Source: Neophaeotheca triangularis (taxonomy: Eukaryota). From it: DNA of 64,000 nt. Location: contig BAAIJX010000002.1 of the NCBI GenBank assembly GCA_054600435.1, positions 868,001-932,000 on the forward strand, read 5' to 3'. The notes beneath the pieces are model-generated. The model did no database searches. It worked only from the letters and a program-made list of their open reading frames with translations, and had not been told where the DNA came from. Shown here piece after piece: positions 2,053 through 33,522 of the stretch. The number at the start of each line of letters is the position of its first letter. The stretch's first letter is position 1. Made by a program: the position numbers and the translations under genes.

Positions 2053-2411
2053 CTCTCCCTACTATTAAGCAACACGTACGTGACTACCCTTTTTAGCAGT
2101 GAATATATGAATGCTACGTTTTGCGGTAATTGCCGCTAATACGCGCTGCTATACGTTGTCACGTAGAAGCTACTAGTGATAGGAAGGTGTTACTATCACT
2201 TTTAGAAAGCTCCTAAAAGAATATAGCACTATAAAAAGGCCTACTCCTCCTACTACAGTTCTCTAACCTTTCCTACTACTATAACTAGCTCCTCTTATCT
2301 TTACTAACTACTAATAACTAGTCTTGTCTTCACTAGTTGCCTTAATACTAATAGCTTCACATTCTACTAATACTAGCTAGTAATACTAATAGCTTTAGTA
2401 CTAATAGTAGT

Positions 2412-3508
2412 ATGGCTACTATTAACTAAAGCATAATGGGTAGTATAGGTAGCTCTAGTAGTAATAAGAAGCCCCTAACTAGTACCCCTTTAACACATAC
2501 TATGTATAACTTAAACTAGTTAGCGACACTAAGTAAGTTACTATAGGATAGCTGTTTCTATAAGCGATAAGCCGTAAGAATTTCGCTAACATTCTTAAAT
2601 AGTCCTAAACTATATCTAGCTAGACTAGATAATGTTAAGCAAATACTACTACAATTCCATAATAATGAAGCTTAGTAGTTCTATGCTTCTAATAAGTCCT
2701 TAGCCCTAAAGAATAAGCTAGAGATAAGGGTAGCTAGTAAGAAATTCAACCTATAATCTACTAAGAATACTAATTACCTCCCCACTACTATAACCTAAGC
2801 TACTAAGGGAGGGAAAATTCATAAAGGGGATATAGCTTATAGTAGATATAAGAAGGGTAATAGCCCTTAGAAGAACTATATTACCTTAGAACATAAAGGA
2901 AAGAAGTTTATAAAGGGTACCTATAGAAATTGTAGTTATAGTAACTATTTTAACTAATATGACTTCTCTTATAAGTACTACTAGCATTTATAGTGCTTAT
3001 AGTGTTTATAGGCTAATTTCTATAGGAATTACTAACATATAGGTAGCCTATTAACTAGTCCTATAAATAAAGTCTTTATAGGAAACTCTAGTGTCTTTAC
3101 TAAGAAGGATAGAGTTAATAGCTAGCTCTCCTATAGTAGCTCCCCTAACGACTAGTAGATATACTAAGGTACTAATCCCTAATAGCATTAACTAGAGGAT
3201 ACTAGCTAGGGCTACTATATTCGCTTAGGCTCTAAGGTAAAGAGTAGATGTCTATAGTAGTAGGTCTACCCTTAATAGGGGGATAGGTACTAAATCTATA
3301 CTATCTACTATAAGAGCTAGGTCTAGTAGAGAAAGTACCTTTTAGGGCTTCCTAACTTCTATAGGAAGTTCTTCTAGTTCTAGTAGTTCTTCTTCCTCTT
3401 TAAGCCTCTTAGTAAGGAAGGATAGTAAGAAGGATAGTAGCTCGAAGGGTAGTTAGGGTAGTCCTAAGGATAGCTAGGGTAGTTTAAAGAATAGCTAGAA
3501 GAAATAAA
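2412..3508 (+). pseudogene. RIP-degraded antisense cargo gene in Copia A, DUF3716-like six-cysteine domain (ends approximate)
   Basis: 2838-2966 after TA->TG reversion reads C-S-R-C-K-K-G-N-G-P-W-K-N-C-x12-G-A-C-G-N-C-x8-C-D-F. TATAAAA at 2230; intron-like GTAAGT...GCTAAC...TAG at 2533-2602; acidic low-complexity tail at ~3410-3508. Confidence 0.6.
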
Positions 3509-3683
3509 ATAAAGGAAAGGATAGTGATAGCCTATAAGGGTATTGTTTCTTAGGAGATAGTTCCCTAGAGTTTTAGTGTTTTCTAGAGTTTCTTAGGTTT
3601 TGTTTCTTAGGTTTCTTAGGTTAGTATAAAGGGAAATGCTATATCCTATAAGGGTGTAATGCTCTCTATAAGTAGGATAATCT

Positions 3684-5463
3684 TAAATCATCTAGTTAGG
3701 GGACTTTAGCTTAGTTAGACTATCTACTAGCTACTTAGTAGTATTAATGTATTTAATACTAATAACCCCCTTCTTAAGCTATTCCCTATAGTAATAGTTT
3801 CTAAGGGAAGTATGTTTTAATCGCTTTAAGTTAGTATAGTCTTCTATAAGTAAGATAGCTAACTTATTATTAATATGAACCTTAATAGTCTTTAAGCTAA
3901 ATTCTATTAAAGGCTAAAGTTTAAGGAAAAGATTCTACATCTAGTTAATTTCCCTTATAGTCTCTATTAATGTAATATACTCTACCTTAGTGCTTAATAG
4001 AATAACTTCCTTCTATCTCTAAGATCTCTAGATTATAGGTATACTATTTATAAAAATGGCTAAGCTAGATATTAATCTAGATGTAGCTAGATTACCTATA
4101 AAATCTAAGTCTAAGTAGGCCTTAATAGAAATCCCTTCCTATCTCTTATAGATAAGCCCTCTATCTATAGTACCTATAATATATCTCTAGATGTGTATTA
4201 TAGCTATAATATGCTCCTTAGATAGGTTTTAGAGGAACTTTACTAAGTAGTTAACTATATAAGAAATGTCTAGCCTTATCTAGTTTACTAGAAATTGTAG
4301 TTCTCTAATTATCTTATTAAAGATATAATAAACCTACTAAGTATATTGCTTCTTAGAAGGTTTATATAAGCGGTTAAGTAGGTACTTAATTATCCTTACT
4401 TAGTCTAAATTATGCCTTTTAAGTTTATTAAAGGTATAATACTTCTAGGATAGCTTAATAGTGTTCCTACTCTCCTTAATATATAGGTCTAGGAAAAGGT
4501 TAGTATCTACCTCCTTAATGCTATACTTCTTCTTTATCCTTATAATAAGCTACTTAATCTTCTTAGGTTTAGGGCTAAAGATCTAGAAGTTATCTATATA
4601 TATTAGAACTAGTATATTATTATTAGTAAAAAGATATATATTAGACTTTATCTACTTTAGTCCTATTAACTTAAGATAGGATATAGTATCTTAGAACTAG
4701 AGGTAAGCTACTTACTTAAGACTATATAAGCCCTTATTAATCTTTATAAGCTTGCCCTTCTTATCTTTAAGAATAAGTTTAAGTCCTCTTAGTGCCTAGA
4801 TAAAGATCTATCTATCTAGATTAGGATTTAAGAATACTATCTCTATATTAATCTAGGTTCTACTCTATTTAAGCTAGAATATAATAGCTAGGAGGATCCT
4901 TCCTATTCCTAGTCTTAGTATTAGTATAAAGGTGTTAATATAATTAGTATCTTATTTCTATAAGAATCCCCTTACTATCTATCTAGCCTTATACTTATTA
5001 ATAGAGCTATCTAGGAGAAGCTTTAGCTTAAATACCTACTTCCCTATAAGTGCTCTTCTACTAGGTAGTAGCTCTAATTACTTAATCTAGGTAATTATGC
5101 TAGTAGATTTAAGGCTTTTAATCTCCTTAATTATTATAGCCTTCTACTAGCTTATATCCTTTCTACTAAATGTATCGTAATAGTCCTTAGGACTATTAGT
5201 AGCTTAGGTTATAGCTCCTATATATAACTACCTATAATTCTATAGTTTTATAGGCCTACCTACCCTTAAATATATTAAGGGCTAGGGGGATAGTAATCTC
5301 TTCCTCTTACTAGTAGTTAGTTAAGGGAAGAATAGTGTTATTAGGGTATCTCCTTAATCTTCCTCTATTTAGTTAACTAAGGGCTACTACTACTCTCCCT
5401 AATTTATAGGGGAGACTTCTTAGTACTCTCCCTATTCTATAGGAGAGGCTTCTTATTATTACT
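3684..5463 (-). pseudogene. Copia A RT/RNase H remnant
   Basis: Minus strand gives RIPed LIYVDD (~4600) and an IKVH-like RNase H motif (~3880); riddled with TAA/TAG stops. Confidence 0.75.
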
Positions 5464-5882
5464 TATTACGATCCTATAAGGTAGTCTTATAGGTAGAGCT
5501 CGTAGTAGAAGAGGAGAGATATCGTAGAAGGCTAGTAAGGGTATTTCCTTTATTATAAGGATTTCAAAGATATGTGAAGTGTCGCTATAGACCTTTTAGT
5601 AAGATTATAATATAAGTTAAACACAAATCTCTATCTAGGAAATATCGCTAGCTATATATATAGGAGATTCATATTAGATTAATCCTTAACTAATCCATTA
5701 TACTTAGGATTAGACTAATCCTAAGTGTCCTAGCTTAGACTCAGTCTAAGTCTAAGCGAGTATGCTTAGTTAAAGTCTAAGCGAACATCTTAGCTAGTTC
5801 TAAGATTATATGTCTAGTAAGCTTTAGGGTTAGACCCTAGCTTAGACTAGGGATTCTAGTTCTACTTAGCTTAGCTATAATA
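5464..5882 (-). repeat. B1 3' LTR
   Basis: RIPed match to the B2 LTR; followed by CTATCCCCCTT (minus-strand PPT). Confidence 0.92.
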
Positions 5883-8800
5883 CTATCCCCCTTTTAGCTT
5901 AGCTTTGTCCTCAAAGCCTAATAAAGTTCCGTTATTCCCTACATCGTTTTGTTATCAAGTTTTATAATATCTTCTACCCTATCCTATAAATAATAATGTC
6001 TCAATCTTTTAGCTAAAGTCGAGAAGTCTAGAATAACTAACATAGCACCCTATTTAGCCTATTAATCTACGAGGAAATCGCCTTTAGCCGAACTAGTACG
6101 ATATGTGATTAGTACTCGATCTAGTCGGTATTTAGAATATATATGTAAAGGATATACTAAGTGTAACATAAAGCTTAGTTATCCTAAGTAGGAAAAATAG
6201 AGAGATTCATGTAACAAACTAATAGTAGTTAGAGGAGTATAAGGAGGAGGAGCTCGAGCTTTTATAAAAACTACATAAGCATCATTCGAAAAAGTTGTAG
6301 TTGTAGAAACAGCTTCATTATACTAAGGGTCGTATAGAAACCATAGTGTCTAGAGAGTTAGAGGATTTAGAGTAAGTAGATTAGTTAGAGGAAGATCTCT
6401 TAGGTCTAGTTAACACTAGAGTTGAGATTATGTAGCGTCTAGGCTTTATTAGTATTCTAGAGATGTCGATATAGGACTAGAGTGCTATCGATAGCTTAGA
6501 TCTTCCTTCTAAGCTTTAGGATTTCGGTCCTAATAATATTATTATAGGGCCTTCTAGTAGTTAAGTAAGTTGTCCTTAGGTTCCTAAGTATTTTCGCTTA
6601 TATAGTAACCTTTCTATTTCATGAGGTAGTTCTAACTATCCTTATCTAGAATCTTTTCGACCTTATACTTAGCTTCTTCCTCTAGTAGATTATAGTGAAA
6701 GATATCTTAGATTAGTGTTTTGGGATCTACTAGTTTGAGTAAGGATATATAGAAGACTAGGTAGATTCTAGCATCTTTTAGGAGTTAGAGGAAGTAGTTG
6801 ACTTTTCCTCTTTATTCTTTAACTAGAAACGGTCTGACTTTAATATAGTCTAGTTTTCGTGTTCATCTCCTTATCTTTAGGTTTTTCATAAGTAGGTACA
6901 CCTTATCCCCCTTCTTAAGCTAAGGTGCCGTTTTAGAGTCCTTATATCTTTATGACTCGAGTCGCTACTATAATTATGTGATTTTGTCTTTCGCCTATTT
7001 ATGTGCTTCCTATAGCTATAAAGATGTTTATAGGGCTCTTTCTACGAGTAGTCCTAGTTTTAGTTCTATGAAAATATTTAGATCTTTTCTAAAGTTTATA
7101 TAGAATAGAGTTATACCTATCGTTTCTAAGGCATTATTGTTAAGTATGAGCTATACTATAGGTAAGAGTACTACCTAATTATCCTGAGCGTAATTGATGT
7201 AATGTCGTAAGTATGTTTCGAGGGATTAGTTCGAGCATTCTATCTATCTATTAGTTTCTAGGTAAAATGCCGTTAATAGCTTATGTTTCACTCTGATTAC
7301 TAAAATCAAGGTCTTCTAGTAATTAGATATAAAGAGCTTATCTCTATCTATAATTAGAACTGTTAGAATGCTATAGTATTATACTAATCTGTCGAGGACG
7401 AGGTATCCGAGTTCTTCTATAGTAACTATCTCGTTATAGGGAATGAAATGTGAATACTTCGTAAGTCTATCGACTATAACTAGAATTGAATTATAGTCCT
7501 TACCTATTAATAGGTCCTTAGATCTTAGTAACTTGACGACAAAATCCATTATGACCTCATTCTATAGTAGATCTAGTAGCTCCTAGAATTGTAGGTTTCT
7601 ATATTTAGTATGTCTTAAAGCTTTATTTTATTAGTAGCTTATATACTTCTTGATGTACTCTAAGACCTTCTATCTTATTCTAAGGAACACGAAGTTGCGT
7701 CTAATATGTTCTACTATTCTAGCGATTCCTAGATGTCTATTAGTAGGTCTATCGTAGTAGTCCTAGATGTACTAGCATTCCTTTTCGTGTAGAACCCTAA
7801 ACTTCCTATGTTCGATAGGGAATTCCTTAGTGTTATCCCTAAGTACTTATAGTACTAAGTTAAATTCCTAAGGGTTAGCGCTTAGGCTTCTATCCTTATT
7901 AACTTTTAGTATATAGTGTTACTATAGAAGGTGTCCTTCTATGTAGTCGCTTCTTCTACTTAGCGCGTCGGCGCGTCTATTGTCTTTTCTAGGAGTATAG
8001 ACTATATTAAACTTATATTGTCTAAGTAGCTCTAACTATCTACATTATTAGCGTAATAGTTCCTTAGTAATTATGAAATATTATAGGTTCTTATGATCTA
8101 AGTAAATAGTTAATCTAGTTACTCCTTTACAGTATACTCTCTAGTATCATAATACTATAATGATTATGAGTAGTTCTTTATTATAGATCTCATAATTCTA
8201 TTCTACTAGTAATATCTTTCTTAAGAAGTAAGCGATAGGGTGTTGTTTACTTTCAACCTCCTATATGAGGTAAGCTCTTATTACTTTATTAGAGGCATCT
8301 ATTTCGATTTAGATAGGTCTCTTAGGGTCAAACATCCTAAGTATAGGGGTAGTTATATATAACTCCTTAAGCTTATTAAAGGATTGTTGTTAAATCTTTC
8401 CCTATATAAATAGTATATCCTTCTTCATAAGGTTAGTTAGAGGTATAGTAAGCCTTAAATAATCCTACATGAATTTCTAATTATAGTTAGCTAATCTAAG
8501 GAATACTTAAATGTCCTTAACTAACTTAGGTATTAGCTATTCCTCGATTAATTGAGTTTTCTTTAGGTCTATTTAGATCCTAGTAGTGCTAATTATAAAG
8601 CCTAGAAAGTCGACTTCCTTCTTATAGAACTCATACTTCTCTAGTACTATTCTAAAGTCTACTTTATCAAGTCATTCGAATACTATGTATATGTCCTTAA
8701 TATACTATTCTCATGATCCTTTCGTGAAGACCAATATGTCGTTGATATAAGCAATAACAGTAATATCGAGTAGGTCTTATAGGATGTCATTAATAAGTTA

Positions 8801-9723
8801 CTAATAGGTTACTAGGGCATTTATAAGTCCTATAGACATGACCTAGAATTCATAAAGTCTATAGCGCGTTCGAAAAGCTATTTTCTACTCTTCCCCCCTT
8901 ACTATTCTAACTAAGTAGAATACATCTCGAAGATCAATTTTAGTGAACTAGTATAAACTAGTGAGTCGATCTCTTATCTCGTCGATATTAGGTAGTAAAT
9001 AACAGTTTTTAGTAGTGATCGCATTAAGTCATCTGAAATCGATAACTATTCGTAGTTTTCCTCCTTTCTTTAGAACGAAAAACGGTAGTGAAGTAGCTAA
9101 TAAAGTAGAGGGTCGAATCTATCCTTTCTTTATTTTTTCATCTAGCTATTATTATTACTCTTCGAGCTCTTTTTTGGATAGCGTGTAAAGTGGCCCCTAT
9201 AGTATCTTTATACTAGGCTAAATGTCGATTTAGTAGTCCTATAGTTAATATCTAGGTAGAGCGGCTACTCCTTCTTCTTCCTAGAAAAGGCGCTTCTATT
9301 TCCTAAATTCTCTAGGGATATCTAAAGGTATATAACTTCCTTTCTCAACTCTTACCTATTAGTCCATTTAGGCTAGTTTAGTACCTATAGAGTCTAATCT
9401 AATTCATATTAGTATTATGGTCGATTAGCGATATGTTTCGTTGATCTACCTTCTCTTATCTACTATCGATCGCTACTAGTATGTAGGGTAGGTTGTAGTG
9501 ATGTAACTATACCTATCGAATATAAGTACTCGTTTTCTCTAATCTACTATAGGATTATGTCGTTCTAACTAAGGAGTACCTAGAACGATGTTATGTCTAG
9601 CTATAGGTATAACATCTAGGACAATTCGCTCGTGATACTTTTAGAAGACAAGTAGTAGTAGTACTATTTTGCTATCTACGTTAGGTAGTAATGAGCTATC
9701 TACGGCTATTAGTTCGTACCTAC

Positions 9724-10078
9724 TATCGTAGTGACTCCTATACTATGTTCGTAGGCGTACTAGTTTTACGGTATTTGCTTTATCATTACCCCCTTCACAT
9801 ACCTACACCTCCCCCTACACTAGTACTTACATCTTAGACATCTATCTAGATAGATATATATAGAATGAATTGCGACTACTTGAATTAGCCTCTAGGCACT
9901 ATGACTAACCTAACTAATTTCTGACCCCTAATGTATTATTCGTAACTGTTACGAATAATCCCTAATTCTTGACTACACCTAATTCCTAATCCTACTACAT
10001 TATTTATAATTATTATGAATAATACCTCCCTAAGTAAAACTAGTCTCCTAGCTTCTCGAGTACTCTTACTACTCGACA
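9724..10078 (+). repeat. Element C 5' LTR
   Basis: Direct repeat of 21423-21777; contains two 25-bp palindromes. Confidence 0.92.
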
Positions 10079-10757
10079 TATTTAGAGCCAAAGGTAGGGC
10101 GATCATATATTGTCTTCGTCCTAATAGTCGAACCTATACTCTAGGAATTATACCTACTATAAGACTACCTAACTTATAGAACTTACCCTTCGATAAGGGG
10201 ACTAGAAAAGGGACTCGACAACGCGATAGTAGCGCTATAGTTAACCCTAAGAAACCCACTACTCTACCCTACTATTCTCCTGTCCTAACGAAACGATGAT
10301 GGCAGCTTCTAGACAACCTAGACTACTACTTACTACTTTAGCTTTCCTCGCCCTTACCATTCTACTTAGCCTAGATACAGTTATCTATACTACATAAGGT
10401 TTCGGACTATTCGGTATTATCGCTAAAAACTTAATAGAGCTTCAAAAATGCGGAGGCTAGAGTCCCCTATAATGACGCTTATCTCATTTTAATAGAGGTA
10501 AACCCTCTATATACTACTAGAGAATCCGGACCTTTAGGACCTCTAGTAGAGAAAAGATATTATCTCGGCTATAGATCAAAGAAAGACTATAAGGTACTAC
10601 TTAAGATTAACTTCGTAAATTCACTACTAAGAACATCGCTTACATTCTCAGCTTCCTTACTTAGTCTATTACTTATATGTTCCAAGATTCTACTATTTTA
10701 CTTATGCCGCCTTACTATTATTACTATTTCTAGAAAACTGAATAAATAACTAAAAAT

Positions 10758-13700
10758 ATGTCTAACTCTCCTCTCGACGTTTCCCTTACCCTAGAAGATA
10801 TATAGGATGTAGGGCCTACTACTTCCTTAGTACTATCTACCCCTACGCTCACCCTAGGATCTAGTAAGGACAGCCCTAGGGCGTCCCTACCGTTGCGTCC
10901 TACTAATACCCTAGGGTACATAATTATAGTGCCTCCCCTAAGCCCTTATGAGCCTAGGGCGGCCTACTTCGATAGTAGTAACCTTATGAGCTTTATATAG
11001 AAGTATAAGAAGATATGTATACGGTTTAGGTTCGACTCCTATCATGTAGCCGAACTACTCGATAGCTATGTTAGCGACGAGGTCTAGGCCTAGGTATTAG
11101 ACCTCGAGCATAATAGCTTATTAGTAGGCATCTTTACTACTATAAAGGTCAAGTTTAGGGACTTCGACTTAGAGCGACTTACTAGAAGTGTTCAAGCGCT
11201 CGTAGGTTTCGTAGCTAAGAGTAAAGCTATTAGCTATCTAAATAGGATCCTAGAGTATGTTCGCGGTTTCGAGAGCATTATCTATAAGGCTAAAGATTAG
11301 GGGTACCCTCTTAGGGGACTAGAGATTATAAAGCACTTCCTCTATAGTTTACCTTAGAGCTTATAGGAGCGTCTCATCTAGTAGTTCTAGATTAATCTAC
11401 TTATGTCTAGCGAGTCTATCAAGTACCGATAACTATTTAGGGCTATCGAGGACAAGGTCTATACTAACTAATCCTTAGAGATGTTGAATTCAGTTCACAA
11501 TATAATAACCTGTACGGATACTAGCGAGAAACCTATCATGTCTATACTAGTCCCTACTATAGCATTCCTAGCACTAGCTTTTAGGAGCTAGGGATGTCCT
11601 ATATCTAACTTCCCTAAACAGCCTACCTCTAAAAAGGAAATAGACGAACTAGTAGCTAAGTTTAAGATGCTTAAGTTAAACGCTATAGACCTAGCCATTA
11701 TAGTTAAGAATGTAGGCTACTACGGATTCACTATGTCTAACATTCTAGCTAGCGCTATAACTAATGTCTTCTAGATAGCTCCTTAACCTTCTTTTCCTAA
11801 ACAGTCTACTTATGTCCCTACTACTACTACCTCTAATTTTAATAACTATATATAGTATCCTAGTTAGGGTTATAGCGCTCTAAATGCTACCTATAGAATA
11901 GTACTAGGAAGCTGTTTCATGTGTAGTAGCCTATATAGATAGATGACTTACCCTAGATTTCTCGAGCTTATTAATAAGGGACTTATACACTCTAACCTAA
12001 GTAGTAAATACATCTAATAGGGATCTGTTCAAAACCCGGGAGATGAACTCTAAAGGCTTCTATAGGAAAACCGGCTCGATGCTATTAAGTAGAAGATTGA
12101 ATAGAGCGAGAACTAGTTCATGCCTATCGCTATATAAGGTCCCGCGGTTCGCTTTATAACTACACTCCCTCTATTATCCCGTTCCGACACCTCTAAGGAT
12201 AAGGATGATACCTCTTTATATCTAATATAGACTCGATCTAGCCTAGGGCTAGTTCAAGACCTAGATACGAGAGTGTATAAGAAGCGAGCTACTCCTAAAG
12301 TCCGCGTAATAAGGCCTAGCGAGTATAAGAAGCTAGTAGATAGCGCGGCTTATAAGAGAAGCTAGACTATGCCCTACGACTTACTAATTAATCGACTAGT
12401 TAAGGAAAGGGACACTAATGACGAAGACTAGTAATAGCTAGCGCTACTAGCGATAAAGTAGTAGGCCTCGAGACATATAAAGCTCCTTAATGTCCTTATC
12501 TAGAATTAGTATGATTACGCTATAATGCTAGAGATACTCCTTAGTAGCGATATTACCGTAAACTATATAGATGTCTTAGCGAAGATACTAGGTATCTAGA
12601 AGCTACTATTTAGCCTACTACCTAAGGGGCTAGCTAATAATATATAGCGAGAAATAGACATAACTACTACATAAAGGTGTCTTGCCTACGAAGCGAAGAA
12701 GTCTACTACTAGGAGTACTTCCATGTTACCTACTATTACTACTACTCACGATTCGGTCGATAGGTAGTAACGGAATACTACTACATTAAACACTATATTA
12801 CTCTATATAACTACCTATGACGTCGACGATCTCATGGGAGAGGACCTAGTTTACTATAATGACTCTCTAGTCTACGAGATGAGGATTAGAAAGGCTAATG
12901 TCACTATACTCCTTAACTCTAGTACGGATATTAATGTCATGACGAGGGACGTTACTAAGCTCGCCTAACTACCTATTACGAGATTGCCATTATCTATTAG
13001 TCTAGACATTATGGTAGCGAACGGAGATGTAGTTACCTTTATTAGGTAGGTCCCTAACGCGCCTGTTTAGGTAGGCTAAGTCGTTATATATACGCCGATA
13101 CTAGTCATAGAATAGTTGTCGAAACCCTATATCCTTAGAGAGCTATATGCTTACCGCGCTTCCCTCAAAGTTTAGAGGAATCTATTAGGTAAAGTTACCT
13201 ACTAGGTCACTAGCGAGGATAGTTTAGTAACTACGGACTTTGTCCCTAGTATAGGAATTCGTCGACTAGTAGGCTTAGATTCTAAAGCTAGAGACCATTT
13301 CTCCCTTAATAGTGTTAGTATGTATATAGTACATATAGATTAGAGCGCGTCCTCTATTCATTTATTAAAAGGTAGGGCGGATAAGTAGGTTCGATTACTA
13401 CTACTAATACCTACCGAGAACTAAGCAAATCATTATTTATAACTATTACGAACAATCCTACTATTCGCGAGATGACTAATAACACTACTAGAACCCGAGT
13501 ATTGTTCGTAACTACTACGAATAATGTCTCTAGTCATATGATACCTAGACGCTCTACTAACTCTATGACTAGTACTTAAGCATTATTTATAACTACTACG
13601 AATAATGCCCTAGGTAGGGTCTCCTACATATAGAGGTCTAGTACAATAGTAGATAGTGTAAAGCTCTCGTAGAGTGTGAAACCTTTAGAACTTATAGCTC

Positions 13701-16700
13701 TTACCTCTAACCCTACCTTACCGCTAAAGGAGAATTTCAGTGTTATGACTATAGCTAAATAGAAGGTAGATAAGGTAGTACCTATTAACGACTCGAGTAC
13801 TATTCTGTCTAAGATTCCTAGTAGATAGTTAGATTAGCGAAAGAAAGCTATAGAGCGCTAGATTAAGAGTATACTAAAAGATCTTGTCGCTTACTCTAAG
13901 TATAATGGCTACTTCGAACTACGATATATATAAGAGCTAAGAGGCTATAGGTTAACCCTAGAGTAGATAGTAGGAGTAATAGTTAACATTACGCTCTTAC
14001 TAGAAGAACGTCGGCTATTCGAAGTGATGTTAATAGCCTATAAGCTAGCCCCTATGTAGGACTTTAAGGAGTATAGTATAATCTATAAAGATATGTGCTC
14101 TCTAGTCAAGATAAGAATAGTACTCTATAAAGCCTAGTAGGCCAAGACATATCCTATACCGAAAGCTTTATCTAGGGAGCTCGTCGAGATGTTAGAAGAC
14201 CGACTAAAAGCTAGTGTCCTTAAGTATAGCTAAGGACAATACTAGAATCCTTAGTTTCTAGTTAAAAAGAAGAATAGTAAATATAGGCTAATTAACTTAG
14301 CTACTATCCTGAATTCGGTTATGGTTCGAGACGCTATAATGCTACTAGATCTCATAAGCTTTATCTACTATGTTATAGGTAGACTACTCCTCTTACTATA
14401 TAACGTTTTCTCTAGATATGATGAAATCCGGTTACACGAAGAAAGCCGCGACATGATAGCTATCATGACTCTATTAGGGCTCCTAAGATAGATAACCTTA
14501 CTAATAGGTTAGATGAACTTAGTAGCTATCTTTTGCCGAGTTATGATATAGATACTTATAGTGCTATATCTACATGACGCTATCCTATATATCGACGACA
14601 TTATCGCTATTAGCGACTATAGTGACTCCTAGGGCGACCCTAACCCTTTACCTAGTATTAGGCTCTTAGTCTATAACTATGTCTAGAAACTAGACTAACT
14701 ACTCGCGGACATGGAGCGAGCTAGATATACTATCGCTATAGGGAAATCGTACTTCCTTTCCGAGGAGCTTAAGGTTATCAGCTTTATATATATGCCTAGT
14801 AGTACGAAGCTATTATGCTTAAAGGTTAAAGCTATCGCTAAGTGGACTAAGTGTCGCATATTACATGAAGCTCGTAGCTTCATTAGAATGTATATATACT
14901 ACAAGTAGTTGATCTAGGGATTTATATAGTATATAAGGCTGATTATTACGCTTATATGGAAAGATGTGCCTTTCATCTAGGGACTAGAACAAGCTATAGT
15001 AATAGTAGACCTAAAAGAGTAGCTAATGAAATTCCTAATCATAGCCCTAGTTGAATATAGTATAGATATAGGCTAACTAGTTCTTATAGTTAATATATGT
15101 AGTACTAGCTAGGGACTTTACTTATAATAAGAAGTTACTAATACGAAAAGACGAGTTATCTAGTATAATAGCGGTCTCTAGAACGAGAGCGAGTAGAAAT
15201 ATGATGCTGTTAAGCTCGAGTACTAGGCGTTAATAATCGCTCTTAAAAGGTTATAGCTATACCTTTATAGTATGAGGTTTGTAGTTAAAATAGATGCTAA
15301 TATGCTAGTTACCTAGCTTAATAAGGTTGCCTCGGACATACTAAATGCCATGGTAACTCGCTAGCTAGCTTAGATTTAACTATTTGATTTCGACGTGCGA
15401 CATGTCGCTAGTACGAAAAACGTCATTACTAACGGCCTGTCCTAGAAGTCTAATGGGCCGGCTAATACTAAAGACATCGACAACTAGGTTAACGTCTATC
15501 TCGATAGCATTTCGGTAGGGCTATCCCCGGTACTAGGCCTAACGTCTACTATTAGTAGAAATAGAGTACTAGCCTTAGCGGTAGGGCTACCCCTAGCGCT
15601 AGTCCTAATGTATACTAGTAACGAAAATCGAGGATCTACCTATATAGTAGGGTTACTCCTAGTATAGGGCCTAATGCCCGTGAGTAGTAAAGACAGAGCT
15701 TCGACTCCTTCTAATAGGGAGAGGGAACCTACTAATAATAATGTACTTAACTCTACCTACTCTAAGTACTCGTAAAGTGTCGCCTACTAGCTCACGACTA
15801 TATAAAGGCCTATAGACCTATCTAAATCGGAGTTCTAGGTATTTAAGCGACAAGTAATACAATTCCTAGTCTATAATGACTAACTATTTCGCTATATAAA
15901 TAGGAACTAGCCATTAACTCGTATAGTAGACGGAGAGTAGAACTGACTACAAATAATAAAAGAACTTCATGATAAGGGTAGTCACTATAGAAGAGAAGGG
16001 ACATACCGGAAAGTAGTAGACAGGTACTAGTAGGAAGGCATATATAATACTATTATAGTATATGTCAAAACCTACTAGGAGTGTTAGCTATATGTATGGA
16101 ACTAATTAGAAGAACTACTACACCCTATCTACATGAACGTAGTAGGTAGGAAGTAGGCCGTCGACCTAGTACGAATACCGGAATCCTATACTTTCTAGTA
16201 CATTACCCTTACCTAGGAAGACATGTCTAGCTAGGTAGAAGGCTGACTACTATATAACACTAAGAGCTATAGGCTAGCTCGCTTCCTTTACGAGGATATC
16301 GTTACTCGACATAAAGTGTTTAGGAAACTAGTCTATAATAGAGGCCTAGAGAACTAAGGGTAGACTACTATCCTACTTAAAGGATATAGTATCTAAGACA
16401 TCACGATCTCGCTATATTACCCCTAAGCTAATAGTATAGTAGAACGAGACTACCTGACTATCATTAATGCGTTAGCTAAAGCGAGTCGAGATACTAGACG
16501 ACCGTAGCTAGACCTACTCTATAGCGCGCTCTAGGCTAATAGGACTACTATACGAGCTACTACTAGTATAACTCTAGTAGCTATAATCTATAGTAGGGAG
16601 CCTATCCTACTAGTAGAGTTATTATTCCCGACCTAGTACACTATTAACTAGAACGGCATTTAAACGACGGAAGACCTACTAGTAGTATAGATGAAGTAGC

Positions 16701-17275
16701 TCGAACATTAGGATAAGAAGATAGATAAAGCCCTTCTACACTTATAGCGCCACTACGAGTTTAATAAGGAGTACTTCGATAAGACTCATTAGATAAGGCT
16801 AGAGTAGTTAAATGTCAGTAATCTAGTATTACTATTCGACTCGGTTCGTAATACTAATATGACGGCAAACTACAAATTCGCCTCTCGCTAGCTCGGTCTA
16901 TATCGCATTAAAACTATCTAGGAGAATATAGGCTTATACTATCTCGAGGAGCTTAATAGGATAGTACTAGATAAGCCGTATACTAGTCGACTGTTGAAAC
17001 TGTTTCACCTAAGGAATAATGTACTCGTAATATAAGACGAGGACAATGTAGACCTAGTAGAAGAGCACTCGATATCTAGGGGTAACGCATCTAACCCTAA
17101 GGACATCGTCCTAGCTATATAGGAAGGGCCTCGTAGGAGCTAGCGGTTACAACTAACTACTAATGTTACGCTAGTACTAAGGCGAAGTAGTACTAGTTTT
17201 GTCTCGATTCCTAGTATTTAGTACGACCTAATAGAGTACGAGCAATTTAGGGACCTAGAGTCTAATGAAGATTAG
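10758..17275 (+). pseudogene. Element C gag-protease and RT-RNase H-integrase remnants
   Basis: ATG at 10758; RIPed LL(D)S(G)(A)DINV protease at 12909; YIDDI at 14588; ELHD..GH and (C)xxC integrase zinc finger at ~15961-16085; Y(H)P(Q)AN(G) at ~16415. Confidence 0.85.
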
Positions 17276-17284
17276 TGTGGCCAC

Positions 17285-17683
17285 ATTATTCGTAACCGTT
17301 ATGAACAATACTAGGCCTAACACTACGCCTTCTCATAACACCTTAGTAATGCCGACGAGGCTCGTTACATTATTCGTAACCGTTATGAATAATGCCTCCT
17401 ATTACCCTATAGTGTAGTGTTATCGCTACGGCTACGTTATATTGTTTATATCTGTTATGAATAATGCCTTCTATTACCTCTAACACCTTAGTAGTATAGA
17501 TGAAGCTGTCACATTGTTCGTAACCGTTATGAACAATACTAGGCCTAACACCGCGAGTCCTAGTAGTGTAGACGAGGCTCATCACATTATTCGTAACTAT
17601 TATGAACAATGTCTCCCTTCACCCTATGAATTCTTAGCGTTATGGCCGAGCTCATTATATTATTCGTAACTATTATGAACAAT
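17285..17683. repeat. Array of six 25-bp palindromes (consensus ATTGTTCGTAACCGTTACGAACAAT), period 72-84 bp
   Basis: Copies start at 17285, 17369, 17441, 17513, 17586 and 17659; spacers are partly related to each other. Confidence 0.9.
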
Positions 17684-17823
17684 AATTGCCTTCGCCCTAT
17701 AACACTTCAGTGTTATATACTACGTGTCTAACACATAGTCACTACTCGTATTACCGGTATATGAGTTAGTAACACATATATAACATGTGCCTAATACATG
17801 CTCTACTAGCTAACATAGCTACC

Positions 17824-17831
17824 TATAAAAG
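17824..17831 (+). promoter_or_regulatory. Candidate TATA box for the element C cargo gene
   Basis: TATAAAAG followed by CT-rich sequence, located between the palindrome array and the cargo ORF. RIP can create TA-rich motifs. Confidence 0.35.
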
Positions 17832-18317
17832 AGGCCTCCCCTCCTACTCTACTCCCTCTACCTCTTCTCTCTCTCTAATAGTAACCACTACTACTACTAC
17901 TTCTTCTTCTCTTACTCACACCAAGACATCATTAACACTAACTACACTATATCTAGCTAACTAGCTATTATTAGCACTACTACGAGAACCTTCGAGTAGT
18001 TTAGCTTCACTTCTAGACAAGCCTTGAAGTAGCTACTCCCTCTAACCTTTATGACCTCTTTAACCTTATCGATATCTCTAGTACTTATTACTCCGACACC
18101 TCTATCCTTTAGTACCTATACCTACTTCCTTACTTTACATTCTCCTAAACCTATGACTTTACTAACACCTTTTCACTTTAACACTAACACTAACACTAAT
18201 ACCCGACATATCTTAGCGCGCGACACATGGAGTAACTAATTCTGCTTTTCTTCTTCTCCTTACTTTCATATCTCTCTCTCTCTCTTTTTCCTATAGTTAA
18301 GATTAAGATTGCTAACT

Positions 18318-21300
18318 ATAGTACCTAAGTAAGTAGCTACTCTAAAGTATCTATATGTAGGTTCCTAAGCTAGCTCTAGATTAGGTAGTTCGAATGAACT
18401 AGTAGCTCCTAAAAGCCCTCGCCTTACTTATAGTAGCTAGGCCACTATACGCCCTACTACTATCTTAGCCGCGCCCACGACCGCATCTATACCTAATAAC
18501 ACTATAGTAGCGAGGTCTACTGACTAGTTAAGCGTCTACTAAACCTAAGGAGCGACTAGCGAATAGGGAGCTCTAACACTCGACATATAGCAATATACCT
18601 TGAGCATTTCTAGGGTATAGCTTGAAAACACTATAAAGGAGATACTATAAAAGATTACTACTATAACTAACTTATATGCCCGAGATGCTATGTAGCTTAC
18701 TATACTTAAGATAGTACATGAAGTAGGCGAAGACTAGGACATGTTAGCATATATAGTAGATGACTATATATGAAGCGACCCTATATAGGCCCTAAAAAGA
18801 GCTGAGTTTAGGAAGATTAAAGACATAGCTACCTATAGCCGTTATAACCTACGTATTACTTGAAAGGAGAACTTCCTCTCTTCATGTAGGCTAGTCAATA
18901 CTACTAAAGCTATCAATTTAGAAACTATTAACTATATCTTTATAGCTCTAGAGAATGTGTCCTAGGGATTCGTTAATCTCGCCAAATATACCTAGACATC
19001 TAAGTAGACATTCTAGAAGCTACATACTACTACTAGTATCTAGACTATATATAGACTTATTAAGGAAACTCCTATAGGTTAACTAACTAGTGGAAAAGGG
19101 AAACCACTCTATATGTTCTTCTACACTAAGGCCGACTTTAATCATATAGTAGGCATAGACTAGATATCTAAGTTTACGACTAAGCGGACTACTAACGAGC
19201 TATAGAACATAGTAGGGGAGCTAGTCGATAAATATAAAAAGATATGCCTAAACGACCTCGCCCTATACTAAGGATAGGATAGCTAGCTCTCTTTCCTTAC
19301 CCGTCCTACTACCCTAACGATACCTAAAGCCCTAGAGACCTTACGACGAGAAGAGCACTTTATTAGTACTATCTCCCTAAGCCCTATAGGATAGCTACGA
19401 TCTCGAAACACTAGTATACTACTAATGCCTACGATTAAGGAGGATGTAGTATCTATAGTATCTATATTAGAGGAGCTTTATCGCTAGCTCTAGGGGTATT
19501 ACTAGCTACTATAACCCTCGTCTATACCTATATCTACTACCTTAGCCCTTCGTACTTATACTTATACCTAGTCTACTAGTGTAGGAACGTTAGCTCTAGC
19601 TCTAGACATATTAGCTATACCCCTAGATATAGCCCTAACACGAGTAGTACGAGGACTCTAGCTTAGCGAGTTGCCCTCTCTAACGCTAGAGGAGATCTAA
19701 GTAGTCATGGTGGCCTAGTTTACTAGTAATGCTATATATAGTAGTCTCTATAGTAGCCGATGTATGTATGAGGTAGATAAGATAGCCCTACTATAGTTAC
19801 GGGTTATGCTTAAGGCCGACAATAACTAATGAACTAGTTTCCGTATTATCGTAGAAGATAGGGATCGTATAGACTTATGTACTAGCTATAGTGCCTACTA
19901 CTATAGCGTGTACGCGACCTACTAAAGGCTAGTAGTATAGAGTCTTAGATTAGTTATTTAAGGGAAAGATAGTAAGAAGACTAATGACTACATCTACTAC
20001 ATCGCGAAACTCCTAAAGCAATCCTAGAAAAACATCGTTTACGGCTATATCTACTAGTTTCTAAACACTAAAGTCTAATGTCTACTAGGGATCTTAGCTA
20101 ATGTTAATAACCTAGAGACTTTCGTATATAAACTAGTAGAATCTAGCATAATACGCTACCTCGACATAGACTAGAAAGCGAGGATTATAGAAGGACTTAG
20201 TATTACTATCGCCTAGTATAAAGAATAGGAAAGGAACGGCACCATTAACATTCTAGATTTATTCCCCGAGCTACTAGAGGTTAAGGACCTAATCAAAAGC
20301 GAGTTCAGTATATACGACGCCTACCTACAAAACAACATATCTAACCGGGGCTAGTATAGGAACATGTACTACAGCCTGATTTAATAGTACCTTCGCTAGA
20401 GCCTAGTACTAATCTTACTATATACTCTATTACACAATGACGGCCTACTTTAGCTAGTGTCCTACCTATATTACACTAAGAACTAGTACCCTAGGGACTC
20501 TACTAGATTTAGGCATATTGATTTGAACCTAGTGTTTACATAGAATAATGGCACTAGCATGTATACTATTTAGGGTAGTATTAGTATCCTTAATGAGTTT
20601 GAGGATAACTATACTATAGTGGTCAAGGGGATATACTAGCGCCTAGAGGAGTAGACGAACTTCCTTATCGCTAATAACCTAGACTATAAGAAAGAGATTA
20701 TAGCTGTCGATAACACGAACCTACTAAAAGACTAGCTCTTAGCCTAGGGTTTAAAGTAGTAGCTAGTCCCTTATAAGGCCTTCGAAGTTTGTATTTCTAA
20801 TCCATGCCTACCCTATAGTACTACTATGTTAAAAGCTGTTTACGAACGTATAACTGTCCTACCCTAGTTCGTAGGAATCGACTAAGACTATGAGTACCTT
20901 TAGAATACTACTAGTAGAAAGTGGAGCGACATTACTACTATATACCGCGACTTCGTGCCTAGCCCGTCAAGTAGCTCTAGTTACACTACTAAGTATAGAG
21001 CTCCTTATGTACTATTTCCTACGACCCTACATCTAGTAGTATAGGATGCCTTATCTAGAGTAGCTATTAGCGAATTATAGTACACGAGCCCTAACATCTA
21101 GTAAGTACTATGTACTATTACTATAGAGAGCCTATATTATGTCTAGAAGTACATTTAGGAAATCCGGGATAACGCTGTTAAGGCATATGAGCTCGCCTAG
21201 GTATATTAGCGAGACGAAGAGAAAAGGGTGTTTTAGAATAAGTCGTTCTACTATTTAGAAAGTTCTAGCTCTACTCTACTACTATAGGATAAAGGAAAGA

Positions 21301-21392
21301 GGGGAGCTATACTAGTAGGATAGGAGGAGCTTATAGAGGAAATGTAGGATAAGGAGAACTCAATAGTGGTTTAGGGTAGCATAGCTACTATA
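18318..21392 (+). pseudogene. Element C cargo ORF (~1000 codons) with a C-terminal PhyH/clavaminate-synthase-like 2OG-Fe(II) dioxygenase domain, RIP-inactivated (ends approximate)
   Basis: Single frame. De-RIPed motifs: G(W)xRNMYYSLI(QQ)YLR(Q), LVSY(P)YY, FRHIDLN (HID intact at 20514-20522), I(Q)GSISIL(D)E..DN(C)TIVVKG(MH), V(R)ISNPCLP(HG) (distal His codon at 20814), LP(W)FV. Confidence 0.7.
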
Positions 21393-21422
21393 GAGTGGCG
21401 AGACTTTCTAGCTAGGGAGGGA

Positions 21423-21777
21423 TGTCGTAGTGACTCCTATACTGTATTCGTAGACATACTAGTTTTGCGGTATTTGCTTTATTATTACCCCCTTCACATA
21501 CCTACACCTCCCTCTATACTAGTACTTATATCTTAGACACCTACCTAGACAGACATATATAGAATGAATTATGACTACTTGAATTAGCCTCTAGGCACTA
21601 TGACCGACCTGACTAATTTCTAACCCCTAACACATTATTCATAACCGTTACGAATAATCCCTAATTCTTAACTATACCCGATTCCTAATCCTACTACATT
21701 GTTCATAACCGTTATGAATAATATCTCCCTAAGTAAAACTAGTCTCCTAGCTTCTCGAGTGCTCTCGCTACTCGACA
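21423..21777 (+). repeat. Element C 3' LTR
   Basis: TGTCG...CGACA; repeat of 9724-10078. Confidence 0.92.
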
Positions 21778-24242
21778 CTACTATCTGTTTTCTTCTAGGT
21801 AGCTAACCTATACTAATATATGAATGTTTCTAAGATAAAGTTTCTACTAGCTCTAGAATCTATTATAGTAAAGGTTTCATATCCGTTAATAGTATATGTT
21901 GTTTAGAAGACCGTTCCTAATACTATTTCATGTTAAGTATTTATGTTGTTTAGTTCCTAATACTCGCTCTTAGCGATAGGTCCTATTCGTTTTTTAAGAA
22001 GTAGGTAGATAAATCCGCTGTCTTAAGAGAGACTTCCTAGTAAAGGGGTCTATCCTAAGGTCTAATTGTGACTTTTCCTTAGATTACGTGTATAGTAATA
22101 GGTCCTCGTGTAGTTACTTTAATGTGTCTAAGAATCATCTTTTAGTCGACTAGTAGTCGAAATTTTTCGTATAGTACTATCGTCTATTAGTTTAAGGAAT
22201 CCTATACTTGTTTCTTCATTTCTTAAAGTATGATTTCTTCTTCTCTCTATTACTTCTAGATAAGCTAGAATTCTCTATAACGATTCTTAACTGTCTTAAC
22301 TTATTATCTTATCATGTATAGGATTCGTATCCTATCTAGCGTAATGTAGCTATTTTCTCTATAGAAAGTACTTCCTATTAGTAGCCTATCCTAGATAAAG
22401 GTAGTAGTATTATACTCGATAGCGACCTTTTAGTAGTCCTAGAACATTACTCGTAATCATATAAGTATAGCTTCGAATTGATTAGGTTCTAAGCGTCGTT
22501 TGCCTTAGATTACTAGGAATACTTCTTCATATAACTATGCGATATAAATGACCATTTTCTTAATTAGTCCTAGTCTATATATAATGAACTCTACTATGTC
22601 GTTATCATCTAGTTCGTCATCGTTAGTATAGTCATATTTAGAGTCGTCTTCGGAATCTATTACTATTATATCTTCTTATGATTCTAGAATCTCTAGAGGT
22701 ATCGATAGTCTTAAGGGGCTAATCTCTAGTGTTAGTATGATCGTAGTAAGTTCTAGTGTCTAAGATATTTCTTCGTTATCTAAGTTAGGTGTTAGTAGTA
22801 CTATTATTAGTAATAGTGCTTAGTTTTCTTATAGTTTATTGTCTTCCTATATAAATAGAGGTAGGGACCTTCCTTAGGCTATGTTACTATCGTCCCTTAA
22901 CTACTATAATGGTTAGTGTCTTGACATTATGTTAAGTTCCTTCTAAAGCTTATGTAGTTACTTAGATTCTTCGTCTATTATGGCCTTAATCCTGTCGTTA
23001 AGATCTACTATCTAATTAGCTACTTAGATCATGAGGTTGAAGTGTTCTTTAGTCTACTCCTTATAACTAACTAAGTTATCGTGAAACTCCCTAAGCTTCT
23101 AGTATTACTTGATTAGCGCATCCGTTCCGGACTTTAGGGTAACTCATTCAATAATGTTTACTTCCTTCTAAGGTCTAATAGGTATTCTGTTAGTTACTAG
23201 TCCCTAACTTTTATGTACTAAATAGTAATCCCTCTTACAAAACCTCTAGTAAAGTTCATTATACTCTAGTTCTTCGTAGGTTCTAGTAATATCATAAGCT
23301 CTATAGCTCTTATTAGTAGGAGAGCCATTATCCTATTAGGTTAAAATCGCATTGACCTCCTATCGTGGGCATATCTGTTTCCTATAGTAGTCTTATACAT
23401 AGTACTCTATCTTATAGTAGTTATAGCATTCCGGTCCATTCCGTTTCTTACTTAGGGCATTCTATTTACCCTATCCTCTATCCCTACCCTTCCTAGGATA
23501 CTATTACGTAGAGTCGAGTTCTATCGTATTAGGATCACGATGTTACTAACCGATAGGCCGGCTATTAGTAGTATAGCTAGTTCGTCCGCGAAATTATCTA
23601 GTGTAGCGTTTTTCCATAAACCATTTATAGAGAGCATTATTAACTTTAATCGCCGATTTGATTATACTAGGGAGAGTTAACTAATTGCCTCTATAGCGTA
23701 TAAGTTTATCCTTTATGTTATCCTTAAGTCCTTAGTAGTACATAGTTATGAGAGTATTATCGCTCTAGTTAGTCTTAGCTAAGTGCTCCTAAAACTTAGT
23801 AGTGTACTAAGAGGTAGACGTTTTCTACATAAGGTACTAAATCATTCGGATAGTAATCTATCGATCGTTACTTAATCTATAGATGTTGTGGATAACTTTA
23901 ACGAAAGACTTCTAGTTCGAGAATAGTCCTTTAGGGTCGATTTATTCTATAAGGAAATCTATAAGCTTAGGGTAGATCTAGTGTTAAGCTTCTCCTCGAA
24001 GGAACGAAGTAGTAGTAAGAGGTTACTTCTACTTACTAATGCTTTCTATAAGAAAGAACATCATTATCTAGTTGACCTAGTCGTCTAGCTTATTACGTTC
24101 GCTATAGAAGTAGTCTAGTTTAGTAACCTTATTAGTTGTTATAGTTAATACTCCTCATTAAGTACTAGCGACGCTTATGTCTCGGTTATCAGATAGGGAC
24201 ATACTTACCTATTAATCTCTCTTTCCTAGAGGGTGTTTAAAG

Positions 24243-24661
24243 TGTTATAATCCTATAAGGTAGTCTTATAGGTAGAGCTCGTAGCGGAAGAGGAGAGATA
24301 TTATAAAAGGCTAGTAAGGGTATTTCCTTTATTATAAGGATTTTAAAGATATATGAAGTGTCGCTATAGACCTTTTAGTAAGATTGTAACATAAGTTGAA
24401 CACAAATCTCTACCTAAGAAATATCGCTAGCTATATATATAAGAGATTTATATTAGATTAGTCCTTAACTAATCTATCGTACTTAGGATTAGACTAATCC
24501 TAAGTGTCCTAGCTTAGACTTAGTCTAAGTCTAAGCGAGTATACTTAATTGAAGTCTAAGCGAACATCTTAGCTAGTTCTAAGATCATATGTCTAGTAAG
24601 CTTTAGGGTTAGACCCTAGCTTAGACTAGGGATTCTAGTTCTACTTAGCTTAGCCGTAACA
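24243..24661 (-). repeat. B1 5' LTR
   Basis: 419 bp; matches the three other B LTRs. Confidence 0.92.
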
Positions 24662-24666
24662 TTACT

Positions 24667-26375
24667 CTCCCTATTCTATAGGAGAGGCTTATTATTACTA
24701 CTTTCCCTTAGGAGAGGCTTATTAGTAATCTCCCTTAAGAGAAGGTTAGTACTCTCTCTACTCTTTAGAGGAGACTTACTAGTATTAGTACTCTCCCTTA
24801 GGAGAGGCTTATTATTAATGTTAGTGCTCTCCCTTAAGAGAGGCTTATTATTACTACTCTCCCTTAGGAGAGGCTTATTATTATTACTACTCCTATTATA
24901 GGCTATTAGAGTTCTCCTAAAGCCCTAGGATATAAAGGGCTAATTACTCTCCCTAAACTATAGGAGCCTAAATAGGCCTAAAGTAGGTATCCTTATTAAA
25001 GGTTATATATAGGCTCTAAATAATGCTAAATAGGCCCTATCTAGTTAGTATTATTAAGAGGTAATTAGTAGTAGAGTTATCTTAGAATCCTATAAACTAG
25101 TAAATAGTAGCCCTTAAGGTAAACTTTTCTAAGGTAATCCTATTTTAGTTATATAGGAATACTTTATAGCTAAATCTTCTAAGGTTAGAGAGGTTAATAG
25201 TCTAGTCCTTAGAAACCCCTAAATCCTCTTTAAGGTATTATAGGGGGATCTTCTTAGTCCTAAGGTTATAGACTATATTAGTAATATAGGTTATATAGTT
25301 TATAGCTAGGGGCTAGAGATCTCTAGGAATACTAGAGTTAATTATTATTGCCCTAGCCTTAGCTAGGATGGTTTTATTAGATAACTCTATAATACTATTC
25401 TATTTAGGAGTCTTTAGGCTTAAGATATCCTATCTTATCCCTATTTGCTACACTATAGTAATTAAATTATAGTTAATAAACTCCTTACTACTATTAGAGA
25501 ACTATATCTTTAGTACCTTATTATAGGCATTTATAGTTCTTACTATAAAATTCCTAATAAATAATAGTACCTTACTTTTGTTTATTATAAAGAGAGGCTA
25601 TCTAAACCTAGTTTTAGAATCTATTAGGAAGATAATGTACCTTAGACTAATACTAGAGATTAGTATAATAGGGCTAACTATATTAATATGTATCTTATCT
25701 AGGGCTTAACTAGCCCTTACTCTTAGAGTTCTTAAGACTACCCTTTAAGACTTTAAGAGTTTATAGACCTTATAGTAGCTTAGGGCTATAGTGTCTACTA
25801 CTTTAAGCCTAGTTATATGTTACTTAGTAGTATTAAGGATACTACTACTAATATAGTCTAGTCTTTAGTACTATCTAGTTATATCTACCCTTAGCCTTAA
25901 CACTACTAATACTACTAGTAATTTTAGTATAGCTACTACTATCGATAGTAGGCTTTATTACTAAGGTAGTAGAAGGATTTTAAAATCCTATATAATATCT
26001 ACCTTATAAACTTGCTTTACTATTCTAATAGTACTTTTATTAGACCTTAGCTTATTAGTATATCTACCTAGAGTAATCCTATACTTCTAGTATAGTATGT
26101 CTATATAAATTAAGTTAGTAGAGGATCTTAGGGAGTATAGGACATTCTTTAGGGTAATACTAAAGATCTTATTATTATATCTAAGGGAGAGCTTAACTAT
26201 CCCTAAGTAGGTAATAGAGGCCTATCTAATAGCCTAGCTAAAGGTAATTAGCTTCCTAAGGGGCTTAATATCCTAAAAGCGCTTAAGCTTATTAAAGAAA
26301 GAGAAGGAGGATCTAGAGTCTAAAATAATAGTGATTTCTAGTACTATAGCTTATAGTACTATAGGGAGAGATAGA
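24667..26375 (-). pseudogene. Copia A protease/integrase remnant and repetitive IN-RT linker
   Basis: Resumes the sequence interrupted at 5463, with the same CTCTCCC/GGAGAG repeats; RIPed GH-C pre-integrase-like motif near 25790. Confidence 0.65.
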
Positions 26376-26794
26376 TGTTGCGATCCTACAAGGTAGTCTC
26401 ACGGGTAGAGCTCGTAGCGGAAGAGGAGAGATATCGAAGAAGGCTGGCAAGGGTATTTCCTTTGTCGTAAGGATTTCAAAGATACGTGAAGTGTCGCTGT
26501 AGACCTTTCAGTAAGATTGTAACATGAGTTGAACACAAATCTCTACCTAGGAAACATCGCTAGCTATATACATAGGAGATTCGTGTTGGATCAGTCCTTA
26601 ACTGATCCATCGTGCTCAGGATCAGACTGATCCTAAGTGTCCTAGCTTAGACTCAGTCTGAGTCTGAGCGAGCATACTTAGTTGAAGTCTGAGCGAACGT
26701 CTTGGCTGGTTCTGAGATCACGTGTTCGGCAAGCTTCAGGGCTAGACCCTGGCTCAGACTAGGAACTCTAGCTCTGCTCAGCTTGGCCGTAACA
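26376..26794 (-). repeat. B2 3' LTR
   Basis: TGTTGCG...CGTAACA; the adjacent minus-strand PPT is AAGGGGGATAG. Confidence 0.95.
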
Positions 26795-26878
26795 CTATCC
26801 CCCTTTCAGCCTAGCTTCGTCCTCGAAGCCTGATAAAGTTCCGTCATTCCCCCCATCGTTTTGTCATCAAGTTTCGCG

Positions 26879-30838
<3,960 letters not shown>

Positions 30839-30851
<13 letters not shown>

Positions 30852-33058: not shown

Positions 33059-33098
33059 ACTTGCCTATTGATCTCTCTTTCCTAGAGGGTGTTCAAAG

Positions 33099-33517: not shown

Positions 33518-33522
33518 ATAGA

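Follow-up and report, generated by a model that had tools for sequence, protein, structure and literature searches.

Among the additional genes of LTR retrotransposons, antisense open reading frames in the interval from pol to the 3' LTR form a class that has already been described, and this class includes brtn of the fungal Boty element (PMC7264820). The aORF-3R members named there are gene23 of maize Grande and those of rice RIRE2, Silene Retand and PvRetro13, and for gene23 an internal promoter near the polypurine tract is reported (PMC7264820). DUF3716 (PF12511), on the other hand, has been described in a different kind of mobile DNA: as far as the excerpted source extends, REP9-1 and REP9-2 are DUF3716 cargo genes of the IS3EU-like DNA transposon REP9 in Zymoseptoria tritici (PMC8232023). 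The DUF3716 protein PSC58 of F. graminearum is called orthologous to NCU05718 of N. crassa in the available text of PMC10776026, and NCU05718 binds double-stranded TTAGGG directly, its DNA-binding domain not being identified in the part of the report at hand (PMC4650311). Antisense extra genes and transposon-borne DUF3716 have already been published separately; the literature covered, subscription papers including Zhao et al. 2011 lying outside it, yielded no placement of DUF3716/PF12511 in an LTR element, no fungal copia antisense gene and no paper joining both in a copia element. Copia elements are usually described as carrying gag and pol only, whereas the lineage described here keeps a spliced third gene under selection.

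The copia element and its antisense gene

The window, a stretch of 64,000 nucleotides (contig C2, 868001-932000), comes from the 25.4-Mb genome of Neophaeotheca triangularis, an ascomycete. From about 2,000 to 34,700 it is AT-rich with RIP-type dinucleotide ratios, and here lies a RIP-mutated Ty1/copia retrotransposon on the minus strand, dead in this genome. The assignment to copia made in a preliminary description of this DNA holds, the reverse transcriptase domain RVT_2 (PF07727) being matched on the minus strand with 71.4 bits (E 1.2e-19; cut-off 31.6), and pol has the order reverse transcriptase, then RNase H end, with no integrase behind them. The element is composed as follows.

1902-1906, no strand: left target-site duplication GCCGC, identical to the 5-mer at 34720-34724
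1907-2052, minus: 3' LTR, 146 nt, differing from the 5' LTR by 7 transitions and 1 transversion
2053-2062, minus: polypurine tract, recognised by sequence and by its equivalent position in the relative L027
3698-5465, minus: 3' part of pol, RNase H end and reverse transcriptase (RVT_2 at 4406-5065), from Pfam and sequence comparison
5466-24660, no strand: nested Gypsy and further insertions breaking up pol, from repeat and copy comparison
24661-26377, minus: middle part of pol (protease/integrase region), collinear with the uninterrupted copy C4
26378-33517, minus: second nested Gypsy, from repeat and copy comparison
33518-34573, minus: gag region, collinear with copies C4, C3, C41 and C63
34574-34719, minus: 5' LTR, from comparison of the LTR pair, followed by the duplication GCCGC at 34720-34724

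The three copia pieces left between the Gypsy blocks are collinear with an uninterrupted copy of 6.5 kb on contig C4, which is flanked by the target duplication GAAGC. No Pfam match was obtained in the gag region, and the middle part of pol gave a weak Pol_BBD match below cut-off (E 0.0095) and none to rve. Searching the genome with the LTR produced 17 matches, among which are six two-LTR copies (C2, C3, C4, C24, C41 and C49), two partial copies, one on C103 with the 3' part and one at the end of C63 with the 5' part, and three further matches to a lone LTR.

Several features accompany the element. Tandem repeats of about 30 nt occur in the copia pol upstream of the reverse transcriptase (5355-5465 and 24661-24900), where the first Gypsy block is inserted, and in the nested block (9929-21735) a 42-44-nt motif recurs in either orientation, with no fewer than 11 occurrences, partly as short arrays with a spacing of 72-84 nt (17279-17696). 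Some 300 nt downstream of the element there is a frame of Zn2Cys6 transcription factor type, and the gene of a PLP-dependent enzyme ends just before the element; the flanking frames are at 42-1595 and 34951-36294, both on the minus strand, and both flanks look unRIPed. The nested Gypsy at 26378-33517 has an antisense frame of its own between pol and its 3' LTR (26954-27433, plus strand, ATG at 26954), with six Cys spaced x2, x13, x8, x2, x7, followed by an acidic coiled-coil stretch. The first stop common to all nine copies compared (of 12 long matches) is at codon 160, and each of the six Cys codons has escaped mutation in three or more of the nine; only three transversions separate them, too few for a selection test. 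This frame matched no Pfam family above cut-off and not the DUF3716 profile, the best Atlas result being 0.88, unnamed.

Past the end of pol the copia element contains extra DNA, put at about 1.6 kb in the preliminary description and found here to be an insert of 1,648 nt between the polypurine tract (about 2062) and the RNase H end (about 3698), which is retained in all seven copies that keep the 3' end. The gene proposed for it is indeed antisense to gag-pol, on the plus strand against a minus-strand pol, and lies between pol and the 3' LTR. Both this layout and the coding nature of the gene can be regarded as almost certain. Its features are these.

2230-2236, plus: TATA-like word TATAAAA, a weak, putative internal antisense promoter, in 6/6 full copies
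2243-2345, plus: pyrimidine-rich tract upstream of the ATG, 69% C+T (top 1% of element-span windows; 75% in L027)
2412-2532, plus: exon 1, with Gly/Ser-rich start and KKP motif, aligning to the N-terminus of the intact relative P0004
2533-2602, plus: intron 1, phase 1, GTAAGT in 6/6 copies; L027 608-653 has the same position and phase
2603-2970, plus: exon 2, identified by the profile match described below
2838-2966, plus: six-Cys core of DUF3716 with RIP mutations, its Cys codons being TAT in five cases and TGT in one, by PF12511 on C44 and L027
2971-3046, plus: intron 2, phase 1, with ATAAGT as its mutated donor in 6/6 copies (GTAAGT in C44 and L027)
3047-3537, plus: exon 3, encoding a Ser/Gly-rich tail with a KGK motif close to its end, 52% identical to C44 over 58 codons

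The word TATAAAA is present at 2230 as had been reported; taken alone it weighs little, because the two strands of the 32.8-kb element span together hold 13 such sites and RIP makes TA. The signals given earlier for intron 1 (GTAAGT at 2533, GCTAAC at 2585 and a TAG ending at 2602) are all in place. For intron 2, ATAAGT at 2971, ACTAAC at 3031 and a TAG ending at 3042 could likewise be seen, but 3042 was wrongly taken as the acceptor: the AG ending at 3046, 4 nt further on, keeps the frame and is the one used in the annotated C44 protein. A RIP-tolerant intron pattern has two plus-strand matches in the 1,648-nt insert, exactly these two introns, and none on the minus strand, compared with 0 and 1 on the two strands in 19,134 nt of nested elements.

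The ATG at 2412 is kept in one of six copies and is ATA in the other five, and the window copy is without 46 nt at about 2624-2626 that are present in the other five full copies; with these restored, the exons amount to about 330-340 codons. The end of the gene is not fixed, because RIP creates TAA, and the stop candidates are TAA at 3505-3507 or at 3535-3537. The tail of the window gene ends in the KGK motif like those of the intact proteins P0004 and P0007, which are encoded on contigs of 6,462 and 6,755 bp, that is, of whole-element size. In the copy on C103, which breaks off at the fourth Cys codon, about 230 nt are inserted in the leader of the antisense gene (between 2896 and 3161 of that copy's contig).

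An intact version of the whole arrangement is found in L027 (Ga0058697_10027775), a metagenomic contig of 2,033 bp, the one confirmed among 12 pattern matches and the single locus at which an intact relative was seen in genomic context. It has, in this order, an LTR-like end and polypurine tract (about 100-116), a C+T tract, the ATG at 466, an intron at 608-653, exon 2 with six Cys, an intron at 1071-1117 and a stop at 1468-1470, and its opposite strand encodes a copia RNase H end with 56% identity to the pol of the window (E 2e-14). Both introns are in phase 1 and interrupt the same codons as their counterparts in the window family, and all three exons are open, so that an open spliced frame, the lack of which would have counted against the gene, does exist. 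L027 is CpG-depleted (2 CG vs 114 GC) and has no TpA excess; it is not RIPed and displays methylation-type decay rather than RIP. Since the gene recurs at the equivalent position in this unmutated relative, which comes from another sample, the antisense gene belongs to the regular make-up of the element: the insert is an established accessory gene in a lineage of fungal copia elements, dead here through RIP.

The DUF3716 protein and selection on its coding sequence

The suggestion that the gene encodes a DUF3716 protein, originally made from its Cys pattern, is confirmed through less-mutated relatives. PF12511, with a cut-off of 22 bits, matches the paralogue on contig C44 at 37.6 bits (E 2.1e-9), the L027 protein at 48.8 bits (E 6.5e-13) and P0004 at 49.3 bits; the window's own mutated exon 2 frame gave no PF12511 match in the Pfam scan. 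A search of 1.84 billion representatives returned 38 matches, of which 35 were aligned, P0016, P0024 and P0026 having been dropped beforehand as repetitive and, on reading, unrelated; word-indexed protein searches gave 1, 2 and 5 matches, at near lengths only. A profile of 38 relatives, from which C44 was excluded, matches the window frame with 53.8 bits (iE 2e-16) and also all six other genomic copies. Of 15 proteins submitted to a Pfam scan, 12 were above the DUF3716 cut-off, one was below it and two were without a DUF3716 match, these being the RIP-like P0009 and a pol peptide included as a check. Scans of viral and prokaryote contigs revealed no relatives of the DUF3716 protein. C19, another copia family of this genome, has no match to the 38-relative profile, and copia elements can therefore spread without a DUF3716 gene. 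A second, distant DUF3716 host gene (L021) was noticed on contig C81 (18946-19125, minus strand, 46.1 bits), with a GTAAGT donor and a CTGAC branch shortly beyond the domain and an excess of GTAC in the surroundings of the gene (15 vs 6 expected).

The six Cys positions are 90-100% conserved in 39 relatives. In the window their codons are as first described, TAT at 2838, 2847, 2877, 2922 and 2958 and TGT at 2931, and the proposal that TAT be read back as TGT is borne out for five of the six, which are seen unmutated in this genome (2847 as TGT in C24, 2877 in C3, 2931 in the window, and all but 2922 in C44). It finds no such witness at 2922, the only position at which Tyr replaces Cys in less-mutated sequence, in all six full copies and in the un-RIPed C44 alike, which at this single codon weighs against the preliminary description. 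All copies are RIPed, and they are uninformative at this codon because each of the six keeps only 1-6 of the 37 CA/TG sites of the C44 paralogue; the corresponding column is Cys in 33 of 35 relatives, and all six Cys are present in L027.

The Zn(II)2Cys6 cluster has Cys spacings of x2, x6, x5-12, x2 and x6-8. The spacing here is x2, x9, x14, x2, x8, and the identification with this cluster (PF00172) was rejected, the profile-profile probability being 1.1%; a stretch resembling the SLU7 zinc knuckle, a single weak PDB sequence match (E 0.039), was not accepted either. The model of the 137-aa domain is confident (pLDDT 86.7), and a fold search with it found no match at E<=0.001 in PDB or BFVD, a result that does not show a new fold; its best VIA Z was 2.4 among 48,161 chains, and the low-confidence full-length model was also without match in a fold search.

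Transversions were used for testing the coding nature of the gene, because RIP makes only transitions, and were counted among the six natural copies away from gaps, with each exon in its own frame. Third codon positions hold 23 of the 33 exon transversions (p 2e-5), including 5 of the 6 in exon 1, and 19 of these 23 lie in four-fold codon families against a background of 129/281 (p 3e-4). Exon indels measure 6, 6, 9, 18, 21 and 42 nt, all multiples of 3, the 46 nt of the window being the sole exception, and the introns and flanks have many indels of other lengths. The third-position bias of the transversions implies that the antisense gene was selected as a protein inside the element. The gene is more diverged than pol, with 29/846 vs 10/1260 transversion columns in the same five copies (p 2e-5), and its alleles are mosaic: in exons 1-2 the window copy is closer to C49 (5/462) than to C4 (14/462), and in exon 3 it is closer to C4 (2/391) than to C49 (10/391). 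Judged by these sequences, mosaic alleles and a divergence above that of pol point to long residence and exchange in the element, template switching among older alleles probably being the simplest reading of the mosaic.

Possible roles of the gene product

The packaged genomic RNA is the gag-pol strand, in which the introns of an antisense gene would go unseen by the spliceosome, and reverse transcription would copy them back into the element. As the preliminary description had argued, antisense introns may thus survive because the genomic RNA is the other strand, an argument that comes from LTR biology and fits the intron retention seen here. Such a gene would need its own promoter, presumably just inside the 3' LTR near the polypurine tract. 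The predicted product of about 330 aa would consist of a compact zinc-binding domain and a disordered tail with a basic end, and we infer a zinc-binding nuclear protein. Having entered the nucleus, it may bind double-stranded DNA by sequence and act in trans, keeping the element transcribed or unsilenced in a role like that of VANC. That the product is a DNA-binding regulator of the element appears to us somewhat better than an even chance, the strongest pointer to such a function being the orthology of PSC58 with the TTAGGG binder NCU05718. Candidate binding words were not enriched: TTAGGG occurs 14 times vs 11.9 expected in copy C4 and 0 times in L027, YRTAYR 28 times vs 44 expected in C4 and 8 vs 5.2 in L027, and CGTACG is not enriched in the copies or L027; RIP blurs such counts, and RIP and CpG loss also blur other motifs. 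The C44 region has 2 CGTACG vs 0.2 expected, too few to weigh.

Other explanations have to be set against this regulator. The gene might be a neutral one-off capture of the C44 host gene, carried as a passenger, as the C44 gene (about 84577-85700, minus strand, L013) is a single-copy, un-RIPed DUF3716 paralogue, 59% identical to exon 2 of the window despite RIP and separated from the element copies by 8-10 transversions in 232 nt, and as no LTR or pol remnant was found in the 28 kb around it (a weak test, the queries being mutated frames and the pol end of L027). The selection on coding among the element copies speaks against a passenger, and the distant copia element of L027 with the same layout largely refutes capture. 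Moreover, the copies share exon 1 with P0004 and L027 and the KGK-type tail with P0004 and P0007; C44, in which Tyr takes the place of the fourth Cys and both start and tail differ, shares neither, and from the sequence comparison it therefore looks like a derived drop-out rather than the donor. The passenger explanation is accordingly very improbable. (The C44 gene stands between genes reading like a dipeptidyl-peptidase and a NACHT-ankyrin protein.) Only a slight chance is also given to the idea that the antisense RNA, and not a protein, is the working product, controlling the element through double-stranded RNA: a transcript that converges on pol could overlap with the genomic RNA, as is proposed in PMC7264820, but the third-position bias, the frame-keeping indels and the conserved Cys reflect selection on a protein, and RNA control may come in addition to it without being the only role.

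Among explanations that accept a protein, one has it acting on host development, in sporulation or the sexual cycle, rather than on element chromatin, for instance by lowering exposure to RIP. RIP acts in the sexual cycle. Expression of REP9-1 lowers pycnidia formation in Z. tritici (PMC8232023), and F. graminearum depends on PSC58 for its ascogenous hyphae (PMC10776026), both being DUF3716 genes; yet both phenotypes could be side effects of a DNA-binding protein and the copia family is heavily RIPed anyway, which leaves this explanation rather unlikely. The protein could also work within the retrotransposition cycle, helping to package or export the RNA, to bring the integration complex into the nucleus or to choose the target site. 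The accessory proteins of retroviruses have served as the model for proposing such roles for antisense ORFs (PMC7264820), and the position of the gene and its retention in all copies would fit; however, the same domain is found in a DNA transposon without RNA intermediate (PMC8232023, as excerpted) and in host genes such as C81, which favours a role at the level of DNA or chromatin. Since DUF3716 rides in REP9, a DNA-level role fits better than RNA packaging, and work in the retrotransposition cycle is considered improbable. For the DNA-binding regulator, a wider generalisation is offered tentatively, as possible rather than probable: DUF3716 may be a family of fungal regulators that are encoded by transposons, bind DNA sequence-specifically through an unsolved zinc fold and either counter silencing or activate in trans, and whose spliced cassette would have been swapped among copia, gypsy and DNA transposons, kept antisense in retroelements so that introns survive, and sometimes dropped into host genes such as C44.

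Comparison with known systems

Set beside the available parts of the cited sources, the gene is most like the aORF-3R class in its position, orientation, presence in all copies, cross-species conservation, probable internal promoter (here predicted from a TATA-like word and a CT tract only) and function still to be assigned. It differs in belonging to a fungal copia element and in having two spliceosomal introns, and its Pfam domain also occurs outside the element, in C44 and C81, whereas aORF-3R proteins are, in the portion of the source at hand, without clear database relatives (PMC7264820). With brtn of the Boty-like Ty3/gypsy elements of Botrytis and Sclerotinia it shares the presence of an additional antisense gene in a fungal LTR element (PMC7264820, PMC8365987, PMC4227169); the host element of brtn, which is compared here via citing papers, is gypsy and not copia.

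REP9 resembles the present element as a many-copy fungal transposon carrying a DUF3716 gene, but it is a Class II element with a measured host phenotype, and its cargo is compared with the copia gene here by Pfam label (PMC8232023). PSC58 and NCU05718 are likewise DUF3716 proteins and provide the only binding data found for the family (PMC10776026, PMC4650311); they differ in being products of host genes, the binding domain has not been mapped, and their TTAGGG word is not enriched in C4 or L027. The intact natural example places a fungal domain that is uncharacterised in a concrete context, and the question of what antisense ORFs do in LTR elements becomes testable with one small protein that is well folded in the model. 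With VANC of the Arabidopsis VANDAL elements the likeness is a functional analogy only, that of an accessory protein whose proposed site of action is the element encoding it; the sequence families are unrelated as far as known, and the proven targets of VANC lie in tandem arrays, of which none were found here (PMC5735166, available part). Should the DUF3716 protein prove to counter silencing, the copia lineage would represent a fungal parallel to plant VANC.
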